Below are positions 5,256-39,294 of a stretch of 64,000 nt of DNA, piece by piece. The position numbers and the translations under genes are program-made. The stretch covers positions 1,125,955 to 1,189,954 of the forward strand of contig CAWDVR010000002.1 in the NCBI GenBank assembly GCA_963805975.1, written 5' to 3'. The stretch comes from an uncultured Acidobacteriota bacterium. GTDB lineage: Bacteria > Acidobacteriota > Thermoanaerobaculia > Multivoradales > SZUA-115. The notes beneath the pieces were generated by a model that saw nothing but the letters and a program-made list of their open reading frames with translations, had not been told where the DNA came from and ran no database searches. Positions within the stretch are counted from its first letter, which is position 1, and every line of letters begins with the position of its first letter.

Positions 5256-5374
5256 TGCTGCTGACAGGGCACTCCTGCTGATATAACAAGGCGACATTCG
5301 AGACGACGACGGCACGAGCCGCGTTCCTCCGGGCGAGGAACGCCGGCCGCGCCGCCGTCTCCGAGGGAGGCCCA

Positions 5375-7354: not shown

Positions 7355-7448
7355 GGTAGAGCCAGAAACGGCATGCGCTGAGCATCCGCGCTCTGAACGC
7401 CAGAGGACCGTGGCCAACTCCGGCGGCGTCCCGTGGGAGGAGAACAGA

Positions 7449-8471
7449 ATGAGACCCGAATTCACGCGCGCGTTGTTAGTACTCTTGGTATCGAGCTTCG
7501 CATCTGCCAACTCATACGCCGTTTGCGACTACGGCCCAGACACCTGCCTGTTCGGATTCGTGTGGCGGGAAGCGTTCCCTGGTGATCACGTTTGCGTAAC
7601 AGGCGCTACTCGCGATCAGGCAAGGAGTGACAACAACCTGGCTGACCAGAGAAGATCGCCGACAGGCGGAGACACATGCTTACCCGGATTCGTGTGGCGG
7701 GAAGCGTCGCCTACCGATCATGTCTGCGTGCTCGGAAGCACGCGCACGGAGGCGGCTTCAGATAATGCTCAGGCAGGCGCCCGAAGAGATCCGCAATGCG
7801 CCGATCCATCGCTAAGCGACAGTTCGGCGCCCAGTTTCATCGAGAACACGATTACCTTTGTACGTGTCTCGGACAATCTTCAGGTCGGGTCAGAAGTCAT
7901 ACCGCCTGCCGGATTGACAAAATCATCAGTGGCCCGAGATCGACGATTTGTAGTAGCAGCTTCTGCGGGCGACAACGAGAGCGGCATCGCCAGCATACGC
8001 CTGCAAGGTGGAATAGGCTGGAACTGCACACCGCGCCTCGAGGGCGTGGGCACCAATCAACAAGGGTCGCTGGGCGCGCCGTCTGATGAAGAAAAAGATA
8101 ACACCAGCACACCGGGAAATCCGCTGCTGCGAAGCGCTCATTTCACCATCGATCCTTTTGAGGGCAATCCCTTGCGCCTGGTTTGCCCATGCACCAACGA
8201 TTCCGGGCCGCTCACGGTCAGCATCACGTTGGCTGCACGCAACGGGAAGGGACTGGAAACAACTTCTCCACCAATTACGGTGGAGTACTCCCCCCAATTA
8301 CCGACCTGCGGTGTTGCGTCGGGTGCAATTTGTGGCAACAATGTGCTCGGCCAGGTCCTGACTTGCACAGACGGCCGGAGCTGCGACTTCAAAAGGTCTA
8401 CGGTTTGCTCGGGATGGTGGATATTCAGAACCTGCGACAAAATTCAGACAACAGACATGTTCTGTCCGTAG
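7449..8471 (+). CDS. secreted cysteine-rich hypothetical protein with an internal tandem ~45-aa repeat; low-GC gene
   Basis: GGAGGA RBS before the ATG at 7449; the track ORF starts at a GTG at 7410. Signal peptide MRPEFTRALLVLLVSSFASANSYA. Two copies of TCL(F/P)GFVWREA(F/S)P(G/T)DHVCV..TR...SDN. About 18 Cys. Local GC is ~55% against ~70% in the flanks. No family recognised. Confidence 0.5.
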   Translation: MRPEFTRALLVLLVSSFASANSYAVCDYGPDTCLFGFVWREAFPGDHVCVTGATRDQARSDNNLADQRRSPTGGDTCLPGFVWREASPTDHVCVLGSTRTEAASDNAQAGARRDPQCADPSLSDSSAPSFIENTITFVRVSDNLQVGSEVIPPAGLTKSSVARDRRFVVAASAGDNESGIASIRLQGGIGWNCTPRLEGVGTNQQGSLGAPSDEEKDNTSTPGNPLLRSAHFTIDPFEGNPLRLVCPCTNDSGPLTVSITLAARNGKGLETTSPPITVEYSPQLPTCGVASGAICGNNVLGQVLTCTDGRSCDFKRSTVCSGWWIFRTCDKIQTTDMFCP

Positions 8472-8546
8472 GTACTGCTCGAGACCGCCGCGAACGGCGG
8501 AATCGGCCGCTACAGGCGTCCTCTCAGAGTCTCCGGTCACACTCTG

Positions 8547-9222: not shown

Positions 9223-9444
9223 GGCTTGAAACCTCCTGTTGGCACCCATCATGGGGTGTTCGTACTGTGCTCGGAAAGCGCGCGCTCGGCGCCGTCCCGG
9301 CTCTTCGTCGAATCGCTCATGGAACGCGCTACAGCTTACTCCAACTCCTGGCCGGCCGCGAGACAGCCGGCTCAACGCGACCGGCATTTGCGATAGCCTC
9401 TCGCGGTCCGCCGCCCGACTCCGACCGCGAACCCGAGCGCCCTC

Positions 9445-10233
9445 ATGCCAGCCGCCCGCACCTACAGCAACTACCTCAAGCTCGACGAGCTCCTCGTCCT
9501 CCAGCAGCCCCTGTCCGACGGGCCGGAGCACGACGAGATGCTCTTCATCGTCATCCACCAGGTCTACGAGCTGTGGTTCAAGCAGGTTCTCTGGGAGCTC
9601 GACTGGCTGCGCCAGGCCCTGCTCGAGAATCGCGCCCCCCGTGCTCTCGCCACCTTCAAGCGCATCCTCACCATCATGAAGACGCTGGTGGCGCAGATCG
9701 ACGTCCTCGAAACCATGACCCCGGTCTCCTTCGGGTCCTTCCGTGCCCGGCTCGACGCCGCGAGCGGCTTCCAATCCCGGCAGTTCCGCGAGATCGAGTG
9801 GGTGCTCGGCACACGCCGGTCGGCCCGTCTCGCGAGCTTTCCGGAGGGTGAAGAAGACCGCCGCCGTCTCGAGGCCCGCCTCGCCGAGCCCTCGCTCTAC
9901 GACACTTTCCTCCGCTTCCTGGCCGCCAACGGCGAGCCCGTACCGGCCGAGGCCTTCGGGCGCGAGCCCGCCGCGCCGCCTTTCGAGGACGAGCGCGTGC
10001 GCCGGATCCTGATCGGCATCTACCGCGAGAACCCCGCCCTGCGCGAGGTCTGCGAGCGCATGGTGGACCTCGACGAGGGCCTCCAGGAGTGGCGCTACCG
10101 GCATATCAAGATGGTGCAGCGCACGATCGGTACCAAGCGGGGCACCGGCGGCTCGCCCGGGGCCGAGTATCTGAAGACCACGCTCTTCGACCCTCTCTTC
10201 CCGGACCTCTGGACCATGCGGGCCGACCTCTGA
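9445..10233 (+). CDS. kynA: tryptophan 2,3-dioxygenase
   Basis: 262 aa. HDEMLFIVIHQVYELWFKQVLWELD is the TDO signature helix. Gene context is with kynureninase. Confidence 0.9.
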   Translation: MPAARTYSNYLKLDELLVLQQPLSDGPEHDEMLFIVIHQVYELWFKQVLWELDWLRQALLENRAPRALATFKRILTIMKTLVAQIDVLETMTPVSFGSFRARLDAASGFQSRQFREIEWVLGTRRSARLASFPEGEEDRRRLEARLAEPSLYDTFLRFLAANGEPVPAEAFGREPAAPPFEDERVRRILIGIYRENPALREVCERMVDLDEGLQEWRYRHIKMVQRTIGTKRGTGGSPGAEYLKTTLFDPLFPDLWTMRADL

Positions 10234-10311
10234 GCGGCTCCGGCAAACCCATCTCTCCCAGCAACCTATCCGCTCTTTCCCGCTTCGCGGGGCCAGGGCT
10301 CTGAGATCATC

Positions 10312-11508
10312 GTGCATCCTCGGGACCTCGCATCTACGCCCAACCCGCTCGCCCCGCACTACTCGCGCTTCCGGGTCGGGGAACGGCTGCTCCTCACCGG
10401 GCACTCCCACCAGGCTTGGCCGGACCTGGCCCTCGAGGGCCAGGTGGAGGCCTTCCACGATGCCGCGGAGCGGGTGGACGAGAAGTGGGAGCGCGCCTTC
10501 GCCAAGGCGGCGCGGTTGAAGCGGGGCATCGCCCGCTTTCTGGACGACGACGCAGGCACCTATGCGCTGGGCGCGAGCACGCACGATCTCGTGGTGCGGT
10601 TCCTCTCGGCCCTGCCGCTCGCCCGCCGGCCGCGGTTGGTGACCACGGACGGCGAGTTTCACACCTTGCGGCGCCAGCTCGCGCGGCTGGCCGAGGAAGG
10701 TGTCGAGGTGGTCCGCGTGGCCGCCGAGCCGGCCGAGAGCGTCGCTTCACGGCTGATCGCGGCGCTGGACGAGCGGACCGCGGCGGTGCTCGCCTCGTCG
10801 GTCTTCTTCGGCAGCGGGCGGATCGCCCTGGGCCTGGGCGAGGTGCTGGCAGCCTGCCGGCGCGCCGGGGCCGAGCTGCTGGTCGACGCCTACCACTCGC
10901 TGGGGGTCGTACCGCTGTCGGTCCCCGGCGAGGAGCTGGACGGCGCCTTCCTCCTAGGCGGCGGCTACAAGTACCTGCAGATGGGTGAGGGCAACTGCTT
11001 CCTGCGGGTGCCGCCGGGCCGGGACCTGCGCCCGGTGGTGACCGGCTGGTTCGCCGAGTTCGAGGCCCTGGCCCAGGGCCATGACCCGAACGAGGTGGCC
11101 TACGGCGCCGGCGCCGCCGCCTTCGCCGGCGCCACCTACGATCCCACCAGCCACTACCGGGCCGCCGCGGTGCTCGACTTCTGGGACGAGCACGGTCTCA
11201 AGCCCGGCCTGCTCCGCGCCGTGAGCCAGCGCCAGGTGGGTCTCCTCGCCGAGCGCTTCGACGCCCTCGACCTGCCGCCCGCGCTCGTCACCCGCGACCG
11301 CGTGCCCATCTCGTACCTCGGCGGCTTCCTCGCCCTCACCTCGCCGCGCGCCGGCGAGCTCTCGGCCGCGCTCTCGGACCGCGGCGTGATGACCGACTTC
11401 CGCGCCAACGTCCTCCGCCTCGGCCCCGCGCCCTACCTCTCCGACGCGCAGCTCGAGGACGCGATGGCGCGCCTCGGCGAGGCCGCGCGAAGCCTCGCCG
11501 ACCGCTAG
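10312..11508 (+). CDS. kynU: kynureninase (PLP-dependent)
   Basis: 398 aa with a GTG start. The PLP-lysine motif is present (LLGGGYKYLQMGEGNCF), along with the DAYHSLG motif. Immediately downstream of kynA. Confidence 0.85.
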   Translation: MHPRDLASTPNPLAPHYSRFRVGERLLLTGHSHQAWPDLALEGQVEAFHDAAERVDEKWERAFAKAARLKRGIARFLDDDAGTYALGASTHDLVVRFLSALPLARRPRLVTTDGEFHTLRRQLARLAEEGVEVVRVAAEPAESVASRLIAALDERTAAVLASSVFFGSGRIALGLGEVLAACRRAGAELLVDAYHSLGVVPLSVPGEELDGAFLLGGGYKYLQMGEGNCFLRVPPGRDLRPVVTGWFAEFEALAQGHDPNEVAYGAGAAAFAGATYDPTSHYRAAAVLDFWDEHGLKPGLLRAVSQRQVGLLAERFDALDLPPALVTRDRVPISYLGGFLALTSPRAGELSAALSDRGVMTDFRANVLRLGPAPYLSDAQLEDAMARLGEAARSLADR

Positions 11509-11519
11509 AATCCCTCGTC

Positions 11520-13109
<1,590 letters not shown>

Positions 13110-27764: not shown

Positions 27765-28226
27765 GTGTCAGAAGTTCTCCGCAAGAAGCTCCTGCCGCGC
27801 ATCGGCTGGCGCGAATGGGTGGCTCTGCCGCGGCTCGGCGTGCCGTACGTCAAGGCCAAGGTGGACACCGGCGCCCGCAGCTCCGCCCTCCACGCCTCCG
27901 ACGTGCGACCTGTGCAGCGCGACGGCGAGCCCTGGGTGCAGTTCCGCATCCAGCCCTTGCAGCGCGAGGCGCGGTTGTCGGTGCTGGTGGAGGCGCCGCT
28001 CGTCGACGAGCGCTGGGTGCGCTCCTCCACCGGCCGGCCCACCCTGCGGCCGGTGATCAAGACCACGATCACCCTCGGCGGGCGGAGCTGGCCGATCGAG
28101 ATCACGCTGGTGCGGCGCGACCTGATGGGATTTCGTATGCTCCTCGGCCGGCAGGCGATCCGGAACCGCTTCCTGGTTCACCCCGGCCGCTCGTTTCTTG
28201 CCGGCGGCATGCCCCCATCCCTCTGA
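27765..28226 (+). CDS. retropepsin-like DUF785 protein (RimK-associated putative aspartic protease)
   Basis: 153 aa with a GTG start. [13 protein letters not shown] contains a DTG-type motif. It sits immediately upstream of rimK, as in rimK loci. The long upstream track ORF 26490..28226 is rejected. Confidence 0.6.
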
Positions 28227-28237
28227 GGAGCTCCATC

Positions 28238-29143
28238 ATGAAGATCGGCATCCTGTCGCGCGATCCCGCTCTCTACTCCACCTCCCGCCTGCGCGAGGCC
28301 GGCGAGGCGCGCGGCCACGAGGTCGAGGTGGTCGACTACCTGCGCTGCTACATGAACATCACCTCGCGCGAGCCGGCGGTGATCTACCGCGGCCGGCGCC
28401 TCCGCTTCGACGCCGTGATCCCCCGGATCGGCGCCACCCACACTTTCTACGGCACGGCCGTGGTGCGGCAGTTCGAGGTGATGGGCGTGTATCTCGGCCA
28501 ACGAGTCGCAGGCCATCACCCGCTCGCGCGACAAGCTGCGCTCGCTGCAGCTCCTCTCCCGGGCCGGCATCGGCCTGCCGGTCACCGGCTTCGCCCACTC
28601 GACCAAGGACATCGACGACCTGATCGAGAGCGTGGGCGGGCCGCCGCTGATCATCAAGCTGCTCGAGGGCACGCAGGGCATCGGCGTGGTGCTCGCCGAG
28701 ACCAAGCAGGCCGCGGAGTCGGTGATCGCCGCCTTCCGCCAGCTCGACGCCAACATCCTCGTCCAGGAGTTCATCAAGGAGGCCGGCGGCGCCGACATCC
28801 GCGCCTTCGTGGTCGGCGGCAAGGTGGTCGCCGCCATGAAGCGGCAGGCGCCGCCCGGCGAGTTCCGCTCGAACCTCCACCGCGGCGGCACTGCCGAGAA
28901 GGTGAAGCTCACCCCCGAGGAGCGCTCGATCGCCGTGCGCGCGGCGAAGACCCTGGGGCTCAACGTCGCCGGCGTCGACCTGCTGCGCTCGAACCACGGC
29001 CCGGTGGTGATGGAGGTCAACTCGAGCGCCCGGCCTCGAAGGGCATCGAGCGCGCCACGGGGATCGACGTCGCGGCCAAGGTGATCGCGCTGCTCGAAAA
29101 GAGCACCCTGCCGGGCAGCACCCAGCCCCGCGTGCAGGGTTAG
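28238..29143 (+). pseudogene. rimK: rimK (ribosomal protein S6 glutamate ligase, ATP-grasp) interrupted by three +1 frameshifts
   Basis: The GAGGAG RBS and ATG are at 28238. Residues 1-88 read in frame A (MKIGILSRD...FEVMGVY). The RimK alignment then continues in a second frame from ~28500 ([19 protein letters not shown]...[25 protein letters not shown]...VMEVNSS). It continues in a third frame for PGLEG at 29029-29043, and returns to frame A for [15 protein letters not shown]. Each shift is a single extra G/C in a G/C run, at ~28497, ~29028 and ~29043. Confidence 0.65.
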
Positions 29144-29338
29144 TCGCTGCCGTAACGTTAGCTCGACCCACCGGCCTATCCCTCGTGCGCTCGCCGGACG
29201 AGCGACGCGCGAACGCTCCAAGAGCATGTCCGTGCTCAAGAGAAGGTTACTGGAAATGAAGCATTGCGCGGCCCGTGACGGAGCAAAAAATCGAGATAGG
29301 GTTCAGGGTTCGGGACCGGCAAGCAAGGAGAGAAAGCC

Positions 29339-29602
29339 ATGGACACGACTGAGATCCGCGCCAAGATCAAGCAGATCATTGCCAACGTCACCAACATCGA
29401 TCCCACGAGGATCGGCGATCGCGACTCGTTCATCGACGACCTGAACCTCGACTCGCTGTCGCTGCTCGAGATCGGCGTCGACGTGGACTACAACTTCAAG
29501 CTCAACCTGCCCGAAGACCGCATGCGCGAGCTGCGCACGGTGGAGGACACCACCAACCTGGTGCTGTCGCGGCAGCGCGAGCTGGCGGAGGTCGCCTCCT
29601 GA
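29339..29602 (+). CDS. acyl carrier protein
   Basis: 87 aa with an AAGGAGAG RBS. The phosphopantetheine site is DDLNLDSLSLLEIG (DSL motif). Confidence 0.85.
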   Translation: MDTTEIRAKIKQIIANVTNIDPTRIGDRDSFIDDLNLDSLSLLEIGVDVDYNFKLNLPEDRMRELRTVEDTTNLVLSRQRELAEVAS

Positions 29603-30852
29603 TGCCACGGACGCGGGACGGCCGCCTGCGGGTCGCCGTCACCGGCATCGGCGCCGTGACCTCGATCGGCGTCGGCCGCCAAGCGGTGTGGGCGAGCCTG
29701 CTCGCAGGCAGGTGCGGCACCTCCCCCGTCGAGTCCTTCGACACCGGCCGCTACAACGTGAAGCAGGGCGGCGAGATCAAGAGCTTCGCCGCCCAGGGGT
29801 ATCTGCGGACACTAGAGGCTGCGGCCCTCGGCCGTGCCTCGCAGCTCGCCGCCGCCGCCGCCCGACTGGCGCTCGAGGACGGCGGGCTCGAGGTGGACGA
29901 CTTCGAGGCCTTGGGCCTCGACCCGGCGCGCGCCGGCGTCGCCATGGGCACCACCTCCGGCGAGCCGCAGGAGGTCGAGCGGCTCGACGATCACCTGGTG
30001 GCCGGCAACCTGGAGCAGGCGGGGCGAGGGTTCATCCGCCGCTACCCCTGTCACGTGATCGCCGCCCACGTCGCCGGCGAGGTCGGCTTCGGCGGCGTCA
30101 ACGTGATGATCCCCACCGCCTGCGCGGCGGGCAACTACGCCATCGCCTACGCCCTGGACGCGCTGCGGGCCGGGCGCGCGGACGTGATGCTCGCCGGCGG
30201 CGCCGACTGCTTCTCGCGCATCACCTACACCGGCTTCGCGCGGCTGGGGGCGATCGCCCCGGACGTCTGCCGCCCGTTCGACAAGAACCGCCAGGGCATG
30301 ATTCCCGGCGAGGGCGCGGCCGTGCTGCTGCTCGAGCCGCTGGATCGCGCCCGGGGGCGCGGCGCCCGGATCTACGCCGAGGTGGCGGGCTACGGCCTCT
30401 CCTGCGACGCGCACCACATGACGGCGGCGCACCCGGAGGGGGAGGGCGCGGCGCGGGCCATGGAGCGGGCGCTCGCGATGAGCGGCCTCACGCCGGCGGA
30501 CGTCTCCTACGTGAGCGCCCACGGCACCGGCACGCCGACCAACGACCGCCTGGAGGCGATCGCCGTCAAGCGGGTGTTCGGCGAGCGCTCGCGGACCACG
30601 CCGATGAGCTCCGTCAAATCCATGCTCGGCCACACCATGGGCGCCGCCTCGGCGATCGAGGCCGCGGTCTGCGCGCTGGCGGTGGCGGAGGACCGCGTGC
30701 CGCCGACCATCCACTTCGAAGAGGCCGACCCCGAGATCGAGGTCGACTGCGTGCCCAACGTGGCGCGCGACTTCCCGGTCCACGTGGCGATGAACAACGC
30801 CTACGCTTTCGGCGGCAACAACGCCTCGACGGTTTTCCGCAAGTGCAACTAG
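29602..30852 (+). CDS. beta-ketoacyl synthase (KS-alpha, FabF/FabB-like)
   Basis: 416 aa. The active-site Cys is in PTACAAGNYA; the two active-site His are in AHGTGTP and GHTMGAAS. The start overlaps the ACP stop (TGATG). Confidence 0.9.
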   Translation: MPRTRDGRLRVAVTGIGAVTSIGVGRQAVWASLLAGRCGTSPVESFDTGRYNVKQGGEIKSFAAQGYLRTLEAAALGRASQLAAAAARLALEDGGLEVDDFEALGLDPARAGVAMGTTSGEPQEVERLDDHLVAGNLEQAGRGFIRRYPCHVIAAHVAGEVGFGGVNVMIPTACAAGNYAIAYALDALRAGRADVMLAGGADCFSRITYTGFARLGAIAPDVCRPFDKNRQGMIPGEGAAVLLLEPLDRARGRGARIYAEVAGYGLSCDAHHMTAAHPEGEGAARAMERALAMSGLTPADVSYVSAHGTGTPTNDRLEAIAVKRVFGERSRTTPMSSVKSMLGHTMGAASAIEAAVCALAVAEDRVPPTIHFEEADPEIEVDCVPNVARDFPVHVAMNNAYAFGGNNASTVFRKCN

Positions 30853-30869
30853 GCAGCGGCGAGCGGCGC

Positions 30870-32096
30870 GTGGTGATCACCGGGGTGGGATTGATCTCCC
30901 CCCTGGGCGACTCCGTGTGCGCTTTCAACGAGTCTTTGCGCGCCGGCACCGTGGCCCTGGGGCCGGTCGAGCTCTTCCCGCTCGACGGCCTGCCGCCGTA
31001 CCACGCCGGCGAGATCAAGGGGTTCGACCCGGCGACCTACTTCGGCGACCGCAACTACCGGCCCCTCGACCGCAACTCGCGCCTCGCGACCGTCGCCGCC
31101 CAGTTGGCGCTCAGCGCGAGCGGGCTCGCCCTCCCCGCGGCGCGAAGCGAGCGCATCGGCCTCGTGCTGGGCACGATGTTCGGCAGCGTACGCACCATCG
31201 CCGAGTTCGACCGCCGCGGCCTGACCGCGGGCCCGTCTTACGTCAAGCCGCTCGACTTCGCCAACAGCGTGATCAACGCCCCGGCCGGCCAGACCGCGAT
31301 CTGGCACGGGCTGGCCGGCGTCAACTCGACGATCACCGGCGGCGCCACGGCCGGCGTGCAGGCGATCGCCTACGCCGCGGACCTGATCCGCGCCGGCCAT
31401 GCGCCGGTGCTCCTCGCCGGCGGTGCGGACGAGCTGTCGTACGAGTCGCTCCTCGGCTTCGACCGTGCCGGTCTCCTACATCCCGCGGGCGACGGCTTTC
31501 CCGTGCCCTTCGCGAGCGGCCGCGCCGGCTTCGCGCTGGGCGAAGGCGCCGCGTTGCTGGTGCTCGAGGAGCGGACCTCGGCCGAGCGCCGCGGGGCGCC
31601 GATCCTCGCCGAGGTCTCCGGGCACGGCTCCGCTTTCGACACTTCGCTCGGCACCAGCGAGAGCGCTGCGTCCGAAGCCCTGGAACGCGCCATCCGCCTG
31701 GCCCTCGACGATGCGGGGATCGACGTGGCGGAGATCGGTGCCATATCTTGCGGTGCCGCCGGCAGCGTCGCCGGGGACCGCGCCGAGGCGCTGGGGATCG
31801 CGGCGGCGCTGGGCGCGGCGGCGCGCCGGGTGCCCGTTTTCGCGGTCAAGGCCCACCTCGGCGAGACCCTGGGGGCGGCGGGCGGCTTCCAGGCCGCCGC
31901 GCTCCTGGGCGCTTTCGCGAGCGGCACCGTGCCCGGCATCCCCGGCCTCGGCAACCACGGCCTCGCGAGCACCGATCCCGAGATCCCGCTGGCTCTCGGT
32001 TCCGCGCCGCGCGCCGCCGAGGTCCGCCACGGCCTGGTCACGGCGATGGGGCTCGACGGCCAGGTCTCCGCCGTCGTCCTGTCGAGACCCGTATGA
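30870..32096 (+). CDS. KS-beta / chain-length-factor-like ketosynthase homologue lacking the active-site Cys
   Basis: About 408 aa. The start is a GTG at 30870, or 30843 overlapping the KS stop. The KS fold is kept, but the catalytic position reads ITGGATAGVQAIAYA (no Cys) and the His motifs are degenerate. Confidence 0.75.
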   Translation: MVITGVGLISPLGDSVCAFNESLRAGTVALGPVELFPLDGLPPYHAGEIKGFDPATYFGDRNYRPLDRNSRLATVAAQLALSASGLALPAARSERIGLVLGTMFGSVRTIAEFDRRGLTAGPSYVKPLDFANSVINAPAGQTAIWHGLAGVNSTITGGATAGVQAIAYAADLIRAGHAPVLLAGGADELSYESLLGFDRAGLLHPAGDGFPVPFASGRAGFALGEGAALLVLEERTSAERRGAPILAEVSGHGSAFDTSLGTSESAASEALERAIRLALDDAGIDVAEIGAISCGAAGSVAGDRAEALGIAAALGAAARRVPVFAVKAHLGETLGAAGGFQAAALLGAFASGTVPGIPGLGNHGLASTDPEIPLALGSAPRAAEVRHGLVTAMGLDGQVSAVVLSRPV

Positions 32097-32608
32097 AGAG
32101 CGCTCGCCGGCGGCTGTGCCCGACGCTCCTGGCCGTGCTCGGCCTGCTCGCACTGGCCGGAGGCTGCCGGCGCGACCTCGGGCCGACGATCGCGGTCGGC
32201 GAGCCGGCGCCCGTCTTCGAGCTGGACGACCTCTCCGGCGGCACCCTCGGCAGCACGGAGCTGGCCGGCGAGCTGGTGGTGGTCAACTTCTGGGCCACCT
32301 GGTGCGGCCCTTGCCGGCGGGAGATCCCGGCTCTCAAGGAGCTCGACGCGCAGCCGGACGTGCGGGTGGTGGGCATCAGCCTCGACATCGATGCCACTGC
32401 AGAGGTGCAGAAGTTCGTGGACAAGAACCGGATCGGCTACACGGTGCTCCTCGGCAACGAGGCAGTGGCGGGGAGCTATCGGGTGACGGCGATCCCCACC
32501 ACCGTGGTGCTCGACCGCGCGCAGAAAGTGGTGGGCGTCTACCGCGGGCTGGTCTCCCGGCGGACGCTCGAAGCGGCGCTGGATCGCGCCCGCAAAGCAA
32601 CGGCTTGA
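32093..32608 (+). CDS. TlpA-like thiol:disulfide oxidoreductase lipoprotein (thioredoxin fold)
   Basis: 171 aa. The ATG overlaps the upstream stop (ATGA). The lipobox is LALAGGC. The active-site motif is WATWCGPC. Confidence 0.8.
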   Translation: MKSARRRLCPTLLAVLGLLALAGGCRRDLGPTIAVGEPAPVFELDDLSGGTLGSTELAGELVVVNFWATWCGPCRREIPALKELDAQPDVRVVGISLDIDATAEVQKFVDKNRIGYTVLLGNEAVAGSYRVTAIPTTVVLDRAQKVVGVYRGLVSRRTLEAALDRARKATA

Positions 32609-32645
32609 GAGCGATCGAACATCGGGTTCGAGGAAGGAGCTGGCG

Positions 32646-34460
32646 ATGAAAGACAAGGCATTGCAACACCAGAAGAGCAAGCGCATGCCGGAGGACGGCG
32701 AGCACTTCGACGTCGCCATCCTGGGCGGCGGTCTCGCCGGCGCGTGCCTGGCGCGCCAGCTCCTGCTCTACAGTGAAAAAAAAGTCGTCATCATCGACAA
32801 GCGCGAGGAGCTGCCGGCACCCGGCCAGAAGGTCGGCGAGGCCACGGTGCAGGCCTCGGCCTTCTACTACAGCAAGGTGCTGGACCTCGAAGAGCACCTG
32901 CTCTGCGACCACCTGATGAAGTACAACCTCCGCTTCTACTGGAAGTCGGCCGGCCGCGACAACCGCAACATGGAGGACTTCGGCCAGGGCTACATCCGCT
33001 ATCTCTCGAACATCGCCTGCTACCAGCTCGACCGCAACCGCATCGAGGCCGAGACGCTGCGCCTGAACCTCGAGAACGAGCGCTTCACCCTGGCGGCGCC
33101 GACGAAAAACCTCGACATCCAGCTCGCCAAGCCGGGCCCCCATCGCCTGAGCTTCGACCGCGCCGACGGCGGCAAGGTGAACCTCTCGGCCGATTGGGTG
33201 GTGGACTGCTCCGGCCGCGCCCGCATCCTGGCCCACAAGATGGACCTCGGCCGGCCGGGCTCGATCCGCCACGGCTCGATCTTCATGTGGGTCGACGGCC
33301 TGCTCAACATCGAGAAGCTCACCGACCTGCCGCGGCTCGAGATGATCCGCAAGCGCGACCGCGCCGCCCTGGGCCACCTGCCCACCTGGCTCGCCACCAA
33401 CCACTTCTGCGGCGAGGGGTTCTGGTTCTGGGTGATCCCCCTCCAGGGCCAGACCAGCCTCGGCCTGGTGTTCGACCGCGCGATGATCGACCATCGCGAC
33501 GTCAACACCCCCGAGAAGCTCATCGACTGGGTGTGCCGCGAGTTCCCGCTCTTCGAGCGCGACCTGCCGCACCGCAAGATCAACCACTTCGCCGGCATCC
33601 CGGACTACGGCTACGACTGCGCGCAGACGATCAGCGCCGACAAATGGGCCATGGCCGGCATGGCGGGCCGCTTCTCGGACCCCCTCTACTCGCCGGGCGG
33701 CGACCTGATCTCGATCTACAACACGCTGATCACCGACGCGATCCTGACCGACGACCCGGAGGAGCTCGCCACCAAGGTGCGCTCCTACGAGCAGGTGATG
33801 CGCGCCGCCTACGAGGCCTACGTGCCGAGCTTCGCCGACTCCTACAACGTGCTCGGCGACCAGGAGGGCTACTGCCTCAAGTACACCTGGGAGCTCGCCA
33901 TCTACTTCTCCTTCTACGTCTTCCCGTTCATCAACGGCCTCTTCACCGACCGCCGCTTCCTGCCCGCGTTCTTCAACCGCTTCGGCCGCCTGGGGCCGAT
34001 CAACCGCAACCTGCAGACGTTCATCGCCGAGTACGCGCGCTGGGCCAAGACCGGGCTCACGGCGCCCGAGGAGCCGATCTTCCACGACTTCACGGAGCTG
34101 CGGCCCCTGGCGGCGGCGGCCGAGACCTTCTACAAGATGGGCATCGAGGTCGACGAAGCCAAGCAGGTGCTCGCGGAGCAGCTCGTAAACCTCGAGGAGC
34201 TGGCGCGCTTCACCCTCGCCTACCTCACCTCGGTGGTGGTGGGCGACGAGGCGGCCGTGCACCACAAGGAGCTCGTGGAGTCGATCGACCTCAACGACTA
34301 CCGCTTCGACCCCGAGGCGTTGCGCCAGAGGTGGGCGATGGCCGGGAAGCCCTCCGGGAGCTATGCCTGGCGCCTCGACCCGCGGGCGGCCGAGAAGTTC
34401 CGTCGGGCCCGGCGGCTGACCCACGCGGACGTCGAGGCGGAGGCGATGGCCGTCTCGTGA
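32646..34460 (+). CDS. flavin-dependent halogenase (tryptophan-halogenase family)
   Basis: 604 aa. The FAD-binding motif is DVAILGGGLAG. The halogenase signature is GEGFWFWVIPL (WxWxIP). The conserved Lys region is also present. Confidence 0.8.
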   Translation: MKDKALQHQKSKRMPEDGEHFDVAILGGGLAGACLARQLLLYSEKKVVIIDKREELPAPGQKVGEATVQASAFYYSKVLDLEEHLLCDHLMKYNLRFYWKSAGRDNRNMEDFGQGYIRYLSNIACYQLDRNRIEAETLRLNLENERFTLAAPTKNLDIQLAKPGPHRLSFDRADGGKVNLSADWVVDCSGRARILAHKMDLGRPGSIRHGSIFMWVDGLLNIEKLTDLPRLEMIRKRDRAALGHLPTWLATNHFCGEGFWFWVIPLQGQTSLGLVFDRAMIDHRDVNTPEKLIDWVCREFPLFERDLPHRKINHFAGIPDYGYDCAQTISADKWAMAGMAGRFSDPLYSPGGDLISIYNTLITDAILTDDPEELATKVRSYEQVMRAAYEAYVPSFADSYNVLGDQEGYCLKYTWELAIYFSFYVFPFINGLFTDRRFLPAFFNRFGRLGPINRNLQTFIAEYARWAKTGLTAPEEPIFHDFTELRPLAAAAETFYKMGIEVDEAKQVLAEQLVNLEELARFTLAYLTSVVVGDEAAVHHKELVESIDLNDYRFDPEALRQRWAMAGKPSGSYAWRLDPRAAEKFRRARRLTHADVEAEAMAVS

Positions 34461-35893
34461 AGAGCGAGCCCGAGCTCGTGGACTTAGCAGCCGGTCTCGA
34501 ACGGATCTTCGATCGGGTGCCCGAGGAAGGCTCGGGGCCGGTCGCGGGCATCGAGGGCGAGCTACCCGCGTGGCTTCGCGGCACGCTGTACCTCACGGGC
34601 CCGGCGCGCTTCCACCGCGGCGAGACGCGCTATCGCCACTGGCTCGACGGCGACGGCATGGTCTGCGCCCTCCGTTTCTCCGAAGAGGCTGGCACCTCTA
34701 GCAGCACCTTCGCCAGCCGTTTCGTGCGCAGCCACAAGTGGGTGGCCGAGGAGGGTGCCGGCCGCGCCCTCTTCCGCACCTTCGGCACGCGCTTTCCCGG
34801 CGACCAGCTCCTGCGCGGGGTGGCTCTCGCTTCGCCGGTCAACGTCTCCGTGGTGCCCTTCGCGGGCAAGCTCCTCGCGTTCGGAGAGCAGGGCCTGCCC
34901 TGGGAGCTCGACCTGACGACCCTCGAGACCCGTGGCGAGCACACCTTCGGCGGCAGGCTCAACCCTATCTCGCCGCTCTCCGCCCACCCGAAGATCGACT
35001 GCACGACGCACGAGATGCTCAACTTCGGCATCTCCTACGCGACGGCCGAGCCCACGCTGACGCTCTACCGCTTCGCCGCGGACGGCCGGCTCCTCTACCG
35101 CCGGCGACACGGCCTCGAGCTGCCCTACTCAGTGCACGACTTCAACCTGTCGCAGCGCTACGCCGTGCTCCACCTCGGCCCGTACCTCATGGACGTGGGC
35201 AGGTTCATGAAGGAAGGCGCCACCGTGATGGAGTCGCTCTCCTGGGAGCCCGAGCGCGGCAGCCGCCTCGCCGTCTTCTCGCGCGAGACCGGTGACCTCG
35301 TCTGCTCGGTGCCGGTGGGGAGCGGCTACTGCCTGCATCACGTCAACGCCTTCGAAGACGAGGACGGGCGGCTGGTGGTCGACCTCCTGGAGCTCGAAGA
35401 GCCCGTGTACAAAGACTACGAGCCTCTGCCCCAGCTCTTCGTCGATGTCCGCCCCGCGCACCCGACCCGCTTCGTCGTCGACCCCGTCACCGGCACGCTG
35501 CTCGAAACGATCCGTCTCCCCTTCACCCTGGCAGCGGACTTCCCCGTCCACGACCCGGCCCTCACCTGCCTCCCCTACCGCCAGTTCTGGATGCTCGGGA
35601 TCTCCACCACCGGGAAACCGGGGCGAAAGTTCCTCGACCGGCTGTGCCGGGGGGACTGGGAGACGGGCGAGGTAGAGACCATCTACACCCCGCCTGCCGG
35701 CAGCTTCCTCGCCGGCGAGCCGGTGTTCGTGGCGGCGCCGGACGGAAGCGAGGAGGAGGGCGTGGTGCTGGTGCCCGAGCTGAACCTCGAAACCGGCACC
35801 ACGAGGTTCCTGGTGGTGGGAAAGGACGTGGCCAGGATCGAGCTGGGGCGAGCGATCCACACCTGCTTTCATGCCGGATGGAGTTTCGGCTGA
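34457..35893 (+). CDS. carotenoid/stilbene cleavage oxygenase (RPE65/CCD family)
   Basis: 478 aa. The GTG start overlaps the halogenase stop (GTGA). The four iron-ligand His contexts are present (SAHPKID, THEML, YCLHHVNAFED, IHTCFHAGW). Confidence 0.8.
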   Translation: MKSEPELVDLAAGLERIFDRVPEEGSGPVAGIEGELPAWLRGTLYLTGPARFHRGETRYRHWLDGDGMVCALRFSEEAGTSSSTFASRFVRSHKWVAEEGAGRALFRTFGTRFPGDQLLRGVALASPVNVSVVPFAGKLLAFGEQGLPWELDLTTLETRGEHTFGGRLNPISPLSAHPKIDCTTHEMLNFGISYATAEPTLTLYRFAADGRLLYRRRHGLELPYSVHDFNLSQRYAVLHLGPYLMDVGRFMKEGATVMESLSWEPERGSRLAVFSRETGDLVCSVPVGSGYCLHHVNAFEDEDGRLVVDLLELEEPVYKDYEPLPQLFVDVRPAHPTRFVVDPVTGTLLETIRLPFTLAADFPVHDPALTCLPYRQFWMLGISTTGKPGRKFLDRLCRGDWETGEVETIYTPPAGSFLAGEPVFVAAPDGSEEEGVVLVPELNLETGTTRFLVVGKDVARIELGRAIHTCFHAGWSFG

Positions 35894-36149
35894 TGGTTTC
35901 CCCCGCCGGTTCGCCTTCCAGGCAGATTCACCGCCGATTCGCCCGCTTCCTCGGAGATCGAAGTTCGCTGACAAGGCCGGCACTTTCTTTCCGCCTCTGA
36001 TCGGAACTTGGCGGCCGAGGAGTGGGAGCGAGGTAATTTTTCGCCTCCCCCGGTTAGAGATTCTGACGCAAGCGCCTCGGGCAGAAAGACTTACCCTTGC
36101 CTCTGCCCCACGCCGCACCTACATTCCTGGCGTGCGAAGCCTGGATCCG

Positions 36150-36554
36150 ATGCGGATGGCGCTGCGGCTGCTGCGCGAGCGTCGGGGCTGGAATCAGCAG
36201 GAGCTGGCGGACAGAGCCGGCAGCACCAAGAGCAAGATCTCCACTTACGAAACCGGTACGACGGAGCCCACCCTCACCACTCTCGACGGGTTGCTGCTGA
36301 CGCTCGGGTCCAGCTGGCTCGAACTCTCTCTCCTCGCCCAGATGCTCGAACCGGCCGTCGCCTCTCTCGCAAGCAGAGGCGAGGGCTCGCCCGCGATGGC
36401 CAGTGTGCCGCCTGCCAGCACGCCGGTGGTCGGGGCGCTGCGCCTCAACCTCGCAGCGGCGGGAGACTGGTTGAGGCCCTGGAGCAGAACCTCCTCGCCC
36501 CTCCCTCAACCACCTCCGAGGTGCCAGCCGACTCGTAACGGCACTCCGGTGTAG
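36150..36554 (+). CDS. XRE-family helix-turn-helix transcriptional regulator (paralogue 1; C-terminal region apparently frameshifted)
   Basis: The HTH is QQELADRAGSTKSKISTYETG. The conserved N-terminal region extends upstream, with a possible GTG start at 36132. After ~36460, similarity to paralogue 2 continues in another frame (GRLVEALEQNLLAPP versus KLIAALEQSVVELPP). Confidence 0.55.
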   Translation: MRMALRLLRERRGWNQQELADRAGSTKSKISTYETGTTEPTLTTLDGLLLTLGSSWLELSLLAQMLEPAVASLASRGEGSPAMASVPPASTPVVGALRLNLAAAGDWLRPWSRTSSPLPQPPPRCQPTRNGTPV

Positions 36555-36651
36555 CTTCCAATCGAAGCGGTGGGCACCCCTCCTCGTGGAGGCTCAGCTT
36601 TCCGAAGCAATCGAGGCCAGGATCGATTGGTGATGGTACATTGCTCGCTCG

Positions 36652-37143
36652 ATGAAGGGCGAGATCGAGCGAGTCCTCGGAGCTCTGAACAGAGCCGAGG
36701 TCCGCTACTTGGTCGTGGGTGGCGTGGCTGTCGTGCTTCATGGCTATCTTCGCACCACCAGGGACCTGGATCTGGTCGTCCAACTGGGAACGGAGAACCT
36801 CAAGAAGGCCCTCGAGGCCCTGAAGAACCTCGGCTTCGAGCCCGCCGTGCCGGTTCCGATCGAAGCCTTCGCGAATCCGGTAGCGCGGGACTCGTGGATT
36901 CGAGACAAGAACCTATTGGTCTTCTCGCTCTGGCATCCGCAGAGACCTGGATTCCAGGTCGACCTTTTCGCGGAGGAGCCGTTTGACTTTGAAGAGACCT
37001 ATTCTCGCGCCCTCCGGGTTCCGCTCGACAGCACCACGGCGATGGTTGTCTCGGCACATGACCTCATCGCTCTGAAGCGCCGAGCGGGCCGGCCCCAGGA
37101 TCTCGCCGATATCGACGCGCTGGAAGAACTGGAGGAGGAATAG
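36652..37143 (+). CDS. minimal nucleotidyltransferase-fold protein (pol-beta superfamily, MNT/DUF6036-like)
   Basis: 163 aa. YLVVGGVAVVLHGYLRTTRDLDLVV is a GG/hG...DxD NTase-like core. GC is lower (~58%). Confidence 0.5.
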   Translation: MKGEIERVLGALNRAEVRYLVVGGVAVVLHGYLRTTRDLDLVVQLGTENLKKALEALKNLGFEPAVPVPIEAFANPVARDSWIRDKNLLVFSLWHPQRPGFQVDLFAEEPFDFEETYSRALRVPLDSTTAMVVSAHDLIALKRRAGRPQDLADIDALEELEEE

Positions 37144-37149
37144 CCGCCC

Positions 37150-37383
37150 ATGCTCGAGGAGAAGAACGCACGCACCGAGTCAGAGTGCCAGCCCGAACCC
37201 TGGAGCTTCGAGGCCAACCGCAAGAGGCAGCTTCGGACAGGCCTTCGGCTGACGCCTGCCGAGAGACTACGGTGGCTGGAGGAGACTGTAGAGGAGCTTC
37301 TTCCCTGGGTGGGTCGGGCACGGCCGGGGCCGTCGGTGGACCTCGGCCAGCAGGGGCCGGACGATGTACACCGACCAGCGTAG
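37150..37383 (+). CDS. small hypothetical protein adjacent to the NTase gene
   Basis: 77 aa. It starts 4 bp after the NTase stop. It contains LTPAERLRWLEETVEEL; no family is recognised and it may be spurious. Confidence 0.3.
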   Translation: MLEEKNARTESECQPEPWSFEANRKRQLRTGLRLTPAERLRWLEETVEELLPWVGRARPGPSVDLGQQGPDDVHRPA

Positions 37384-37479
37384 CGTCAAGCCGCGATATC
37401 TGACACTTCTACCAACCTGTCTCGTGTGGCGGCCTCCAAGGTCGAGGAACAGGATCGGTCGGGATAACATCCCGGCCCC

Positions 37480-39294
37480 GTGAGCACCCGCCCCCTCCTC
37501 TTGAGCTGCGAGTCGATCAGCAAGCAGTACGGTTCGCGGCCACTGTTCCAGAACCTCTCGTTCGGCCTCTCCTCAGGAGATCGCGTCGGGCTCGTGGGCC
37601 CGAACGGCTCCGGCAAGTCGACCCTCCTGAGAATCCTGGCCGGTCTCGAAGAGCCGGATTCCGGGACGCGCTCGGTGCGCAAGGGGACGCGCGCCGGCTA
37701 CGTGCCGCAGGACCCGGTCTTCGCCGAGCACCTGCCGGCCGAGGAGATCCTCGTCGAGGCTCTGGGCGGCCTGCCGCTCGAGGACTTCGAGAAGACGGCG
37801 CGCGCCGCGTTGGTGCTCGGCAAGATGGGCTTTCGCGAGCCGCGACAAGTGGTGGGCACGCTCTCCGGTGGTTGGAAAAAGCGGCTGGCCATCGCCCGTG
37901 AGCTGGTCCGCGAACCGGAGATCCTCCTTCTCGACGAGCCGACCAATCATCTCGACCTCGAAGGCATCCTGGATCTCGAAGAGATCCTCAGCCTGGAGCC
38001 CGCCGCCTTCGTCGTGGTAAGCCACGATCGCTACTTCCTGGAGAACGTGGCGCGCCGCATGATCGAGATCGATCGCGCTTATCCGGAGGGCATGCTCCAG
38101 GCCGAGGGCACCTACAGCGACTTCCTCGAGAAGCGCGACGAGGTACGGCGCAACCAGGTCGAGTACCAGGAGACGCTCGCCAACCGCGCCCGCCGCGAAG
38201 TCGAGTGGCTGCGCCGGGGCCCCAAGGCCCGCCGCACCAAGGCGAAGGGCCGCATCCAGGAGGCGGGACGGCTGCTGGAGGAGCTCGCCCAGGTCAAGGA
38301 TCGGACCTCCGAGGCAACTCCCACCGGCATCGATTTCGCCGGCTCTGGCCGCAAGACCAGGAAGCTGCTCGAGGCTCGAGGCATTGGCAAGTCCTTCGGC
38401 GATCAGGTGGTGCTCGAGGGCGTGGACCTCCTGATCCGACCGGGCACGCGCCTCGGCGTCCTCGGTCCGAATGGCAGCGGCAAGACCACGCTCCTCTCGC
38501 TTCTCGCCGGCTCCCTCGAGCCGGACCGAGGCGATATCGTGCGGGCACCGTTTCTGAGAACCGTCCTCTTCGAGCAGAGCCGCGAGACGCTGGACCGCTC
38601 TGTGACCTTGCGCCGGGCGCTGGCGCCGGAGAGCGACTCGGTGATCCACCAGGACCGGACGGTCCACGTCGCCTCCTGGGCGCGACGCTTCCTGTTCCGC
38701 CCGGAACAGTTGGACACCCCGGTCTCCTCGCTCTCGGGCGGCGAGCAGGCGCGCATCCTGATCGCACGGCTGATGCTCCAGCCAGCCGATCTACTGATCC
38801 TCGATGAGCCGACGAACGACCTCGACATCGCAACCCTCGAGGTGCTCGAGGAGAGCTTGCTCGAGTTTCCCGGCGGCCTCGTCCTGGTGACCCACGACCG
38901 TTATCTGCTCGACCGCGTCTCGACCTCCATCCTGGCGCTCGACGGCCGGAGAGGTGCCAGCCTCTTCGCCGACACGGCGCAGTGGGAAGGAGAGCGGCGA
39001 CGCGACATGGCCCCCCGGCCGGTGTCTTCCAAGCCGTCCTCCGGCGCACGCTCGCCCGAGCCTCAAGCGAAACGCCTGACCTACCGCGAGCGGCGCGAAT
39101 GGGAGCGGATCGAAGGTGAGATCCTCGCCGCGGAGGAGGCGTTCGCACGCCACCAGGCGGCGGTCGAGGATCCGGTGATCGCGACCGATGCCGTGGCGCT
39201 CGCCGAGCGCTGTGCCGCGCTCGACTCCGTCCGTGCCGACGTGGAGCGGCTCTACGCGCGCTGGGCGGAGCTGGAGGAGAAGAAAAGCACCTGA
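37480..39294 (+). CDS. ABC-F family ATPase (two ABC domains plus a C-terminal coiled-coil; Uup/YheS-like)
   Basis: 604 aa with a GTG start. The first ABC domain has the Walker A motif GLVGPNGSGKSTLL and the signature LSGGWKKRLAIA. The second ABC domain has GVLGPNGSGKTTLL and LSGGEQARILIA. There is an inter-domain linker, a C-terminal coiled-coil and no TM domain. Confidence 0.85.
   Translation: MSTRPLLLSCESISKQYGSRPLFQNLSFGLSSGDRVGLVGPNGSGKSTLLRILAGLEEPDSGTRSVRKGTRAGYVPQDPVFAEHLPAEEILVEALGGLPLEDFEKTARAALVLGKMGFREPRQVVGTLSGGWKKRLAIARELVREPEILLLDEPTNHLDLEGILDLEEILSLEPAAFVVVSHDRYFLENVARRMIEIDRAYPEGMLQAEGTYSDFLEKRDEVRRNQVEYQETLANRARREVEWLRRGPKARRTKAKGRIQEAGRLLEELAQVKDRTSEATPTGIDFAGSGRKTRKLLEARGIGKSFGDQVVLEGVDLLIRPGTRLGVLGPNGSGKTTLLSLLAGSLEPDRGDIVRAPFLRTVLFEQSRETLDRSVTLRRALAPESDSVIHQDRTVHVASWARRFLFRPEQLDTPVSSLSGGEQARILIARLMLQPADLLILDEPTNDLDIATLEVLEESLLEFPGGLVLVTHDRYLLDRVSTSILALDGRRGASLFADTAQWEGERRRDMAPRPVSSKPSSGARSPEPQAKRLTYRERREWERIEGEILAAEEAFARHQAAVEDPVIATDAVALAERCAALDSVRADVERLYARWAELEEKKST

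Follow-up and report, generated by a model that had tools for sequence, protein, structure and literature searches.

A six-gene acyl carrier, ketosynthase, halogenase-type and carotenoid-cleavage-type operon in uncultured Acidobacteriota

The operon described here lies at positions 29339-35893 of a 64,000-nt stretch of DNA, referred to as the window, from an uncultured Acidobacteriota bacterium of the class Thermoanaerobaculia (contig CAWDVR010000002.1 of assembly GCA_963805975.1, positions 1,125,955 to 1,189,954 of the forward strand). It consists of six open reading frames (ORFs), all on the + strand, that encode an acyl carrier protein (ACP), an active ketosynthase (KSα), a ketosynthase-like partner resembling a chain-length factor (CLF; KSβ), a TlpA/ResA-like thiol-disulfide oxidoreductase, a halogenase-type flavoprotein (FDH, after the flavin-dependent halogenases) and an RPE65-type non-haem iron oxygenase of the carotenoid cleavage dioxygenase (CCD) family. 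We propose, with a confidence that stays a little short of even, that the operon represents an orphan specialised acyl-chain pathway of Acidobacteriota in which a short, probably unsaturated acyl-ACP is made, halogenated and cut oxidatively at a C=C bond. To judge from the sequences, each part is a known kind of enzyme, and it is the combination, i.e. a KS-CLF-ACP system resembling fatty acid synthases (FAS) and polyketide synthases (PKS) with a halogenase and a CCD as tailoring pair, that appears to be unprecedented. The first-pass annotation of this DNA had named no described cluster type that matches, and our literature search likewise found no published report of a ketosynthase and inactive ketosynthase combined with an ACP, a halogenase and a CCD.

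The operon and its enzymes

The two ketosynthase-type subunits are encoded at 29602-30852 (KSα, 416 aa; Pfam ketoacyl-synt N- and C-terminal domains, 4e-41 and 1e-38) and at 30843-32096 (KSβ, 417 aa; ketoacyl-synt domains, 1.6e-30 and 4.6e-16). KSα has the catalytic residues Cys174-His272-His307, together with Lys339 and the gate residue Phe403, and this set is kept in 23 of the 24 homologues found in the related loci that are described below. In KSβ the Cys, His and His columns are occupied by Ala, Leu and Gly and the Lys is retained; none of its 22 homologues in the related loci keeps the catalytic triad. These alignment columns agree with the first-pass annotation, which had seen a Cys-His-His ketosynthase, a partner lacking the Cys and an ACP. 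Its label of "type II PKS" is loose, however, as both subunits score higher with FabF than with the actinorhodin KS and CLF, and KSβ has an Ala and not the Gln of CLF proteins. An aromatic type II PKS minimal set was rejected on the same two points, and no cyclase, aromatase or ketoreductase (KR) was found.

Comparison with solved structures (phmmer against PDB chains) was more informative. KSα is closest to chain 9s5h_B (464-465 bits, 52% identity), followed by Iga11 (6kxd_A, 323 bits), FabF (about 300 bits) and the actinorhodin KS (227 bits), and KSβ is closest to chain 9s5h_C (239-240 bits, 33% identity), followed by FabF (177 bits), the actinorhodin CLF (113 bits) and Iga12 (90 bits). On one scoring scale KSα reaches 464 bits with 9s5h_B as against 143 with KSβ, and KSβ reaches 239 bits with 9s5h_C as against 149 with KSα. 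Both subunits resemble the matching 9S5H chain more than they resemble each other, i.e. the two pairs correspond subunit by subunit. On these scores we assign the pair to the FabF-derived heterodimer family represented by 9S5H, and not to the anammox cluster type that is discussed at the end of this text. Proteins of the KSα type with at least 70% identity are very numerous in Acidobacteriota metagenomes.

FDH (32646-34460, 604 aa) is matched by the Pfam Trp_halogenase model only over its FAD-binding N-terminal part, residues 22-125 (E 1.2e-11). Its motifs are GGGLAG (GxGxxG) at residue 27, a lysine, Lys92, within LMKYNLRFYW, FWFWVIP at residue 259, which holds the WxWxIP motif as W260xW262xI264P265, and GRFSDPLYSPGGD at residue 341, the second FAD motif. 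Lys92 stands at the position of the catalytic Lys in PrnA, RebH and CmlS. The five residues K92, W260, W262, I264 and P265 show no variation among 87 homologues, which settles a check on the catalytic Lys that had been proposed earlier. In this enzyme family the catalytic Lys and the WxWxIP motif mark halogenases, not monooxygenases. An AF2 model of the protein (pLDDT 84) was compared with the PDB by Foldseek, and ranks 1-44, with CtcP and PltM at the top, are all FAD-dependent halogenases except 3nix, an unannotated Cytophaga flavoprotein. FasV, PltA, ChlB4, CmlS, MalA', RadH, Mpy16 and Bmp2 are also among the halogenase matches, CndH is at rank 46, and kynurenine monooxygenases rank only below these halogenases. 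E values range from 1e-19 to 1e-14 for CtcP, PltM, FasV, PltA, ChlB4, CmlS, Bmp2 and CndH; an extra C-terminal domain of about 200 aa, which is helical and clade-specific, keeps the TM-scores at about 0.5-0.7. The protein had been annotated as a Trp-halogenase-family enzyme, and as all halogenase signatures are present along with a predicted halogenase fold, we regard it as a putative flavin-dependent halogenase of the phenol/pyrrole carrier-protein type.

The last gene of the operon (34457-35893, 478 aa) encodes the CCD-type oxygenase. It shares with the carotenoid cleavage dioxygenase family a full-length Pfam RPE65 match (3.9e-94, spanning positions 3-467 of 469) and the four iron-binding histidines, His177, His227, His294 and His472, which are conserved in 65-70 of about 70 homologues, so the RPE65-type oxygenase first noted here is a complete four-His CCD. 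Its nearest solved protein is the Synechocystis apocarotenoid oxygenase (apocarotenoid-15,15'-oxygenase, 171 bits), and this enzyme and an archaeal CCD come ahead of the stilbene-cleaving enzymes and lignostilbene dioxygenases. The scores with the NCBIfam equivalog models (138, 131 and 122 bits, where the cut-offs are 800, 650 and 675) are far too low to support membership of the lignostilbene dioxygenase or the apocarotenoid oxygenase subfamily. In the literature that we searched, no CCD gene was reported from an operon with KS, ACP and halogenase genes.

The ACP (29339-29602, 87 aa; Pfam PP-binding, E 4.5e-9) carries its phosphopantetheine-attachment serine in a DSL motif at residues 38-40. 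Its best NCBIfam and PDB matches are ACPs of the AcpM type (51 bits to AcpM), and the ACP chain 9s5i_E gives only 34 bits. The profile of this ACP matches KS-type loci only, with the addition of a single locus (L009) in which the ACP is kept without a ketosynthase.

The remaining gene (32093-32608, 171 aa; Pfam AhpC-TSA/Redoxin/Thioredoxin, 7e-22) encodes a protein of the TlpA/ResA type with a predicted thioredoxin fold, a CxxC motif (WCGPC at residue 70) and a putative N-terminal signal. Its N-terminus, MKSARRRLCPTLLAVLGLLALAGGC, includes a lipobox-like LALAGGC that fits a relaxed lipobox by eye, and its NCBIfam matches, ResA (8e-24) and TlpA (5e-15), are both below cut-off. Counting the window, a TlpA gene stands directly upstream of FDH in about 7 of 84 loci (the others are L003, L006, L012, L018, L054 and L064), it occurs in 3 of the 21 tabulated KS-type loci, and it is missing from the minimal five-gene version of the unit. 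The first-pass annotation had listed this gene as one of the six of the operon; it does not belong to the conserved core and is a recurrent but minor and dispensable accessory.

The six genes form one compact, co-directional and translationally coupled operon. All six ORFs are present at the positions given above and each has a clear domain in the Pfam scan, in a window that has a G+C content of about 70% and many spurious ORFs. A ribosome-binding site, AAGGAGAG, lies upstream of the ACP gene. The junctions were read from the sequence: ACP and KSα meet in TGATG with a 1-nt overlap, the GTG start of KSβ at 30843 is 10 nt ahead of the KSα stop codon (TAG, 30850-30852), KSβ and TlpA meet in ATGA, and FDH and CCD in GTGA, where the GTG start of the CCD gene overlaps the FDH stop. 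Between TlpA and FDH there is a gap of 37 nt, with the Shine-Dalgarno sequence GGAAGGAG ahead of the FDH ATG. The overlapping starts of the KSβ and RPE65 genes are also used by independent gene calls in relatives, and the single operon with its ORFs, domains and junctions, as annotated at first, is thereby borne out.

Several kinds of genes were looked for and not found. KR, dehydratase (DH), cyclase, acyltransferase (AT) and thioesterase genes, which had been noted as absent from the vicinity, did not turn up when the predicted genes of the window were scanned with Pfam; unscanned were ORF 2-2317, which is on the minus strand and truncated by the edge, and the stretches at about 7.4-9.4 kb, 15.5-20 kb and 60.9-63.2 kb, where there are no confident gene calls. 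The same scans of predicted genes gave no carotenoid genes, and the accessory genes that are found in relatives, for proteins resembling HMG-CoA reductase (HMGR) and phytoene desaturase and for an acyltransferase fused to a short-chain dehydrogenase/reductase (SDR), were looked for in the window without result. An Rfam scan of 28000-37500 found no RNA families, and in a scan for promoters and terminators no promoter was seen and the terminator matches were at chance level and on the wrong strand.

Related loci and chromosomal surroundings

Homologues of FDH number more than 2000 in metagenomes. We scanned one genome per species, which gave FDH relatives in 288 species, and the neighbours of the best 80 loci (numbered with the prefix L) were tabulated by tblastn. 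All of these 80 loci come from metagenome-assembled genomes (MAGs), mostly of Thermoanaerobaculia, Pyrinomonadaceae and other Acidobacteriota, with a few in Pirellulaceae, Gemmataceae, Latescibacterota, Poribacteria and Zixibacteria, and none of them is from a cultured strain. The closest relative of FDH is in a Thermoanaerobaculia MAG (89% protein identity).

The set of genes for ACP, KSα, KSβ, FDH and CCD is found again in at least 21 further species, for the most part MAGs of Thermoanaerobaculia and other Acidobacteriota, so that conservation as a unit, raised earlier as a check, holds for five of the six genes. The minimal ACP-KS-KS-FDH-CCD unit stands alone in six loci (L005, L007, L008, L030, L043 and L088), the last of which is on a contig of 7 Mb. 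The tightest link is the one between FDH and CCD: the CCD gene is directly downstream of FDH in 59 of the 77 loci with enough flank. This pair is the real conserved core, and it is also found without KS or ACP, a point that the first-pass annotation had missed. KSα and KSβ are within 10 kb upstream of FDH in 21 of 63 loci, a patatin or the family u426 is found in the same interval in 30, and neither module is present in 13. In a rough neighbour-joining tree of FDH the KS-type loci form several separate groups that are interleaved with the patatin-type loci, which indicates that the linkage is not a single inherited accident.

The KS-type loci vary in their additional genes. A 357-aa protein replaces TlpA in L001 and both are present in L003, while L006 has an extra SDR-acyltransferase. 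Many KS-type relatives have HMGR-like and phytoene-desaturase-like genes between the KS pair and FDH, and in the same interval an acyltransferase of about 570 aa (SDR-acyltransferase, PlsC-type) whose N-terminal half is Rossmann-like; some of them also have an outer-membrane-like protein or an FG-GAP protein. One extended arrangement is at 9717-21218 of L087, in the order ACP-KS-KS-HMGR-FDH-CCD-ACP-HMGR-desaturase-acyltransferase, with two ACPs and two HMGR-like genes. As one of the latter directly follows an ACP, reductive handling of a thioester is a better explanation than mevalonate synthesis, and the comparison suggests a thioester-reducing role for this HMGR-like clade. A mevalonate gene proper is unlikely, since the gene occurs twice per cluster, once after the second ACP, and there are no other mevalonate genes. 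In L009, a syntenic locus from Thermoanaerobaculia, the ACP, a u401-like protein, FDH and CCD are kept and the KS pair is gone; that the ACP stays beside FDH-CCD after the loss of KS/CLF fits carrier-bound chemistry. The same locus has an ABC-2 exporter (permease and ATPase) and an HlyD-like adaptor at 5300-8483 on the minus strand, divergent from the ACP gene, and these could export the product.

The patatin-type loci hold the families u401, u426 and u1146 and a DinB-like protein, and no ACP. Relatives of u401 also stand between the KS pair and FDH in L001, L003 and L009. Both modules are present within 10 kb in L082, and one MAG (GCA_001920415) has a KS pair (L086) and a patatin-type FDH-CCD locus (L028) on separate contigs. 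These co-occurrences suggest that the KS-type and the patatin-type modules may not be strict alternatives but may both belong to one larger pathway. For the families u401/u360, u426, u1146, u161 and u310 there was no Pfam match even at E 5, profile searches with u401 and u426 against the PDB sequences gave nothing at E 10, and no fold relatives of these two were found, despite a confident model of u401. A side observation concerns L086, where a vanadium-chloroperoxidase-like gene (VCPO_2nd/PAP2/DUF6851) and a TlpA-like redoxin are located at 696-2903, about 7 kb upstream of KSα/KSβ; the former is perhaps another halogenation-related gene in the vicinity of KS genes of this family, or it may be there by chance.

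The operon of the window is embedded among ordinary chromosomal genes. Upstream there are housekeeping genes (enolase, MoaA, an M23 peptidase, RimB and RimK), and the downstream flank has a toxin-antitoxin-like pair, an ABC-F protein, a TonB-dependent receptor, Mfd, SurA and a cell-division cluster. The chromosomal site MoaA-M23-RimB-RimK ... Mfd is common to L001, L003 and L009, and this shared site points to vertical inheritance of the operon rather than to a recent insertion.

A few features of the flanks deserve separate mention. The rimK gene just 5' of the operon (28238-29140, + strand) is broken over three reading frames, with residues 1-85 at 28238-28492, residues 82-263 at 28482-29027 and residues 264-300 at 29030-29140, all on the + strand; the RimK of L001 is intact (300 aa). 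The two frameshifts compensate each other and are about 540 nt apart, which would point to either a pseudogene or indel errors in the assembly. Directly 3' of the CCD gene (35871-37143, + strand) there is an XRE-type helix-turn-helix (HTH) protein, followed by a DUF6036/AbiEii-like nucleotidyltransferase. The true start of the XRE-type protein is probably later than that of the longest ORF, because the HTH is at residues 98-152 of the latter. This toxin-antitoxin-like pair is not at that position in the syntenic L001 and L003, where other small genes and a ParE/Phd pair are found. About 16 kb upstream of the operon (9397-13109, + strand) a tryptophan 2,3-dioxygenase, a kynureninase-like protein and an AMP-binding enzyme of the acyl-CoA-synthetase type stand in a row. 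They would belong to the O2-dependent kynurenine pathway, in a class that is named after an anaerobe, and the row is not linked to the operon in relatives.

A candidate acyl-chain pathway and its alternatives

In the acyl-chain pathway that we propose, the KSα/KSβ heterodimer would prime itself by decarboxylation of malonyl-ACP and, together with the housekeeping FabD, FabG and FabZ, would extend a short-to-medium chain on the dedicated ACP, probably to an enoyl or polyenoyl stage. FDH, with FADH2, O2 and halide, would introduce chlorine or bromine at an activated carbon of the chain on the ACP, and the CCD, with Fe(II) and O2, would then cleave the unsaturated chain at a C=C bond and leave aldehyde fragments. 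With no thioesterase found, the cleavage may also serve to release the chain. In relatives the HMGR-like thioester reductase, the desaturase-like flavoprotein and the SDR-acyltransferase would extend the pathway to a desaturated, reduced and esterified lipid. A more specific version, in which a short polyenoyl chain on the dedicated ACP is halogenated by this new FDH clade and cut by the CCD while still bound to its carrier, with release of a halogenated aldehyde, seems to us unlikely as it stands, although it deserves attention for what it would imply. If it is true, it would be the first CCD on a fatty-acid or polyketide assembly line and a new oxidative mechanism of chain release, and soil Acidobacteria would be a source of small organohalogens.

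A number of points weigh against the proposed pathway. No product, substrate or activity is recorded for any member of the family. FDH is remote from characterised halogenases: its best PDB sequence match is CmlS at 2e-9, the fold matches are at 15-18% identity, and the best NCBIfam match of its N-terminal part is LodB, a non-halogenating maturase. The substrates of the solved CCD-family enzymes are carotenoids, apocarotenoids and stilbenes, not acyl-ACPs, and we know of no member of the family that acts on a carrier-bound chain. An extracytoplasmic location is predicted for the TlpA-like protein, but FDH and CCD lack a signal peptide. The supply of KR and DH by the housekeeping FAS is assumed. 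Finally, at the 30 of 63 loci where FDH and CCD are accompanied by patatin and uncharacterised families there is no ACP within 10 kb, and the pair does not, therefore, strictly need the ACP or KS of the operon.

These last loci are also the main reason to consider that two independent modules happen to be adjacent, one in which the ACP and the KS/dead-KS build a lipid and another in which FDH and CCD act on a different polyene, which might be a carotenoid, an apocarotenoid or an unsaturated lipid released by a lipase. At those loci the FDH-CCD pair stands without KS or ACP beside patatin, u401, u426, u1146 and DinB; furthermore the KS pair is 6-8 kb away from FDH in L056 and L082, the MAG with L086 and L028 has the two on separate contigs, and the CCD is nearest to an apocarotenoid oxygenase. 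We nevertheless consider two unconnected modules improbable, if a serious contender, given that translational coupling spans the whole operon, that the adjacency recurs in at least 21 species across the FDH tree, that the minimal five-gene unit is found alone in large contigs, that L009 retains its ACP next to FDH-CCD after the KS loss, and that the scanned genes of the window include no carotenoid gene. A membrane-lipid pathway akin to "Cluster I" of anammox bacteria and Desulfotalea, concerned with acyl chains that are polyunsaturated or modified in other ways, where the flavoprotein would be a monooxygenase, desaturase or maturase and the CCD would remodel an unsaturated chain, is in our opinion quite unlikely. 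The KS pair does correspond to 9S5H, and the addition of desaturase-like, HMGR-like and SDR-PlsC-type genes in the relatives does parallel the combination of KS/CLF, ACP and phytoene dehydrogenase in anammox Cluster I, as well as the Desulfotalea/Geobacter clusters (PMC2649909). The top NCBIfam matches of the FDH N-terminus, LodB, QhpG and GoxB, are flavin monooxygenases, and although these matches are weak, a non-halogenating role of FDH is possible on their account. Against this, the catalytic Lys and WxWxIP are invariant in 87 of 87 homologues and the best fold matches are almost all halogenases, while the window is without a desaturase, a reductase or an acyltransferase and has neither the FabZ nor the B12-radical-SAM gene of Cluster I.

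Two further explanations can be treated more briefly. A halogenated aryl-polyene (APE) pigment of the xanthomonadin/flexirubin type, its polyene trimmed by the CCD, could be imagined, since KSα has the polyene-forming ishigamide KS as its second-best match among solved structures and APE clusters likewise combine a KS and a dead KS with an ACP and a halogenase-type gene. This is very improbable, as the APE hallmark genes were found neither in the scanned predicted genes of the window nor in the related loci, both KS subunits are nearest to 9S5H and then to FabF, and an enzyme of the 9S5H type is reported to prefer short chains. Hardly any credence can be given to a housekeeping origin, i.e. 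FAS-II duplicates left as an acpP-fabF-fabF remnant with unrelated neighbours. It is true that the flanking genes are housekeeping genes and that FabF is the best NCBIfam model for both subunits, but the scores are under the equivalog cut-off (396 vs 494 for KSα and 246 vs 494 for KSβ), the triad of KSβ is lost in every homologue, there are no fabD, fabG or fabZ neighbours, and the linkage to FDH-CCD is conserved. On the sub-threshold FabF scores, the triad loss and this linkage we rejected the duplicate explanation, which the first-pass annotation had set out as a check.

The acyl-chain pathway with halogenation and oxidative cleavage is the reading that we carry forward. If the CCD acts on a polyene bound to an ACP or in a lipid, the substrate range of its family would be widened and a new release chemistry added, and if FDH is a true halogenase, its family would be a candidate source of natural organohalogens in soil. 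The carriers are uncultured Acidobacteriota and members of neighbouring phyla, groups whose chemistry is almost unknown.

Comparison with known systems

It is instructive to compare the operon with systems in which similar components have been described. The ishigamide Iga11/Iga12 pair (PDB 6KXD), the KS/CLF of a highly reducing type II PKS, includes the second-best solved match of KSα, and as this pair handles enoyl/polyenoyl-ACP, an unsaturated product of the operon is plausible. Iga12, on the other hand, is a poor match to KSβ (90 bits vs 177 to FabF), and the Iga system comes with a KR and a DH, neither of which the operon has. The aryl-polyene, xanthomonadin and flexirubin systems share with the operon a KS, an inactive KS and an ACP, and some of their members are halogenated. 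The first-pass annotation had drawn this analogy, and our results do not support it: the KS pair is nearest to 9S5H, then to the ishigamide KS and FabF, and the APE hallmarks, namely an aryl starter or adenylating enzyme, a second ACP, a KR, a DH pair, a LolA/MMPL exporter and acyl- and glycosyltransferases, were not found by Pfam among the predicted genes of the window (ORF 2-2317 and the uncalled stretches being unscanned) or among the tabulated related loci. No solved APE KS is among the best PDB matches of KSα and KSβ.

With PltA/PltL, CndH, CmlS, CtcP, PltM and Bmp2, FDH shares the GxGxxG motif, the Lys, WxWxIP, GxxxxFxDPxxSxG and the predicted fold. It is encoded beside an ACP, as PltA is beside PltL, and has a long extra C-terminal domain, as do CmlS and CtcP. 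Unlike the carrier-protein-dependent halogenases, however, many members of the FDH family have no carrier protein nearby.

The closest parallel to the KS pair is found in anammox bacteria. For Brocadia fulgida, structures of the amxFabF2/amxFabFmut heterodimer from the "ladderane Cluster I" have been described, alone and with C8-ACP (bioRxiv 10.64898/2026.05.19.726425). According to the same preprint the heterodimer decarboxylates malonyl-ACP and makes acetoacetyl-ACP, single subunits are inactive, and C6-C8 probes are favoured over C16; the cluster is presented as unique to ladderane producers and the heterodimer is called the first chain-length factor in fatty-acid synthesis (bioRxiv 10.64898/2026.05.19.726425). 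The PDB entries 9S5H and 9S5I are probably this heterodimer, although the text of the preprint gives no PDB codes and a literature search on the code 9S5H found nothing relevant. The identification is suggested by chain C of 9S5H, which has Val for Cys, Asn at the second His position and a Phe at 134 that is followed four positions later by a Val at 138 (to be compared with Phe135 and Val139 of the preprint), as well as by the ACP chain that is also held by 9S5I.

The operon and amxFabF2/amxFabFmut have in common a FabF-derived active KS, a partner without the triad and a dedicated ACP. Anammox Cluster I contains the KS/CLF and ACP together with a phytoene-dehydrogenase homologue, amxFabZ and a B12-radical-SAM gene, with the mutant gene first (bioRxiv 10.64898/2026.05.19.726425). 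Similar clusters, which resemble FAS and include phytoene-dehydrogenase-like genes, had already been pointed out in Desulfotalea, Geobacter and Pelobacter (PMC2649909). The extended relatives of our operon carry a phytoene-desaturase-like gene, as Cluster I does, and the window has none. There are further differences. The gene order is reversed, the active KS being first in the operon; Pfam scanning of the predicted genes in the window gave no counterpart of amxFabZ, of the phytoene-dehydrogenase homologue or of the radical-SAM partner; and the ACP, as its scores indicate, is not especially amxACP-like. The partner enzymes FDH and CCD need O2, whereas anammox bacteria are strict anaerobes. A heterodimer of the 9S5H type is common in Acidobacteriota that also encode O2-dependent enzymes, in contrast to the ladderane-only view of the preprint, and Acidobacteriota may serve as comparison systems for the ladderane question, which is genetically inaccessible in anammox bacteria.

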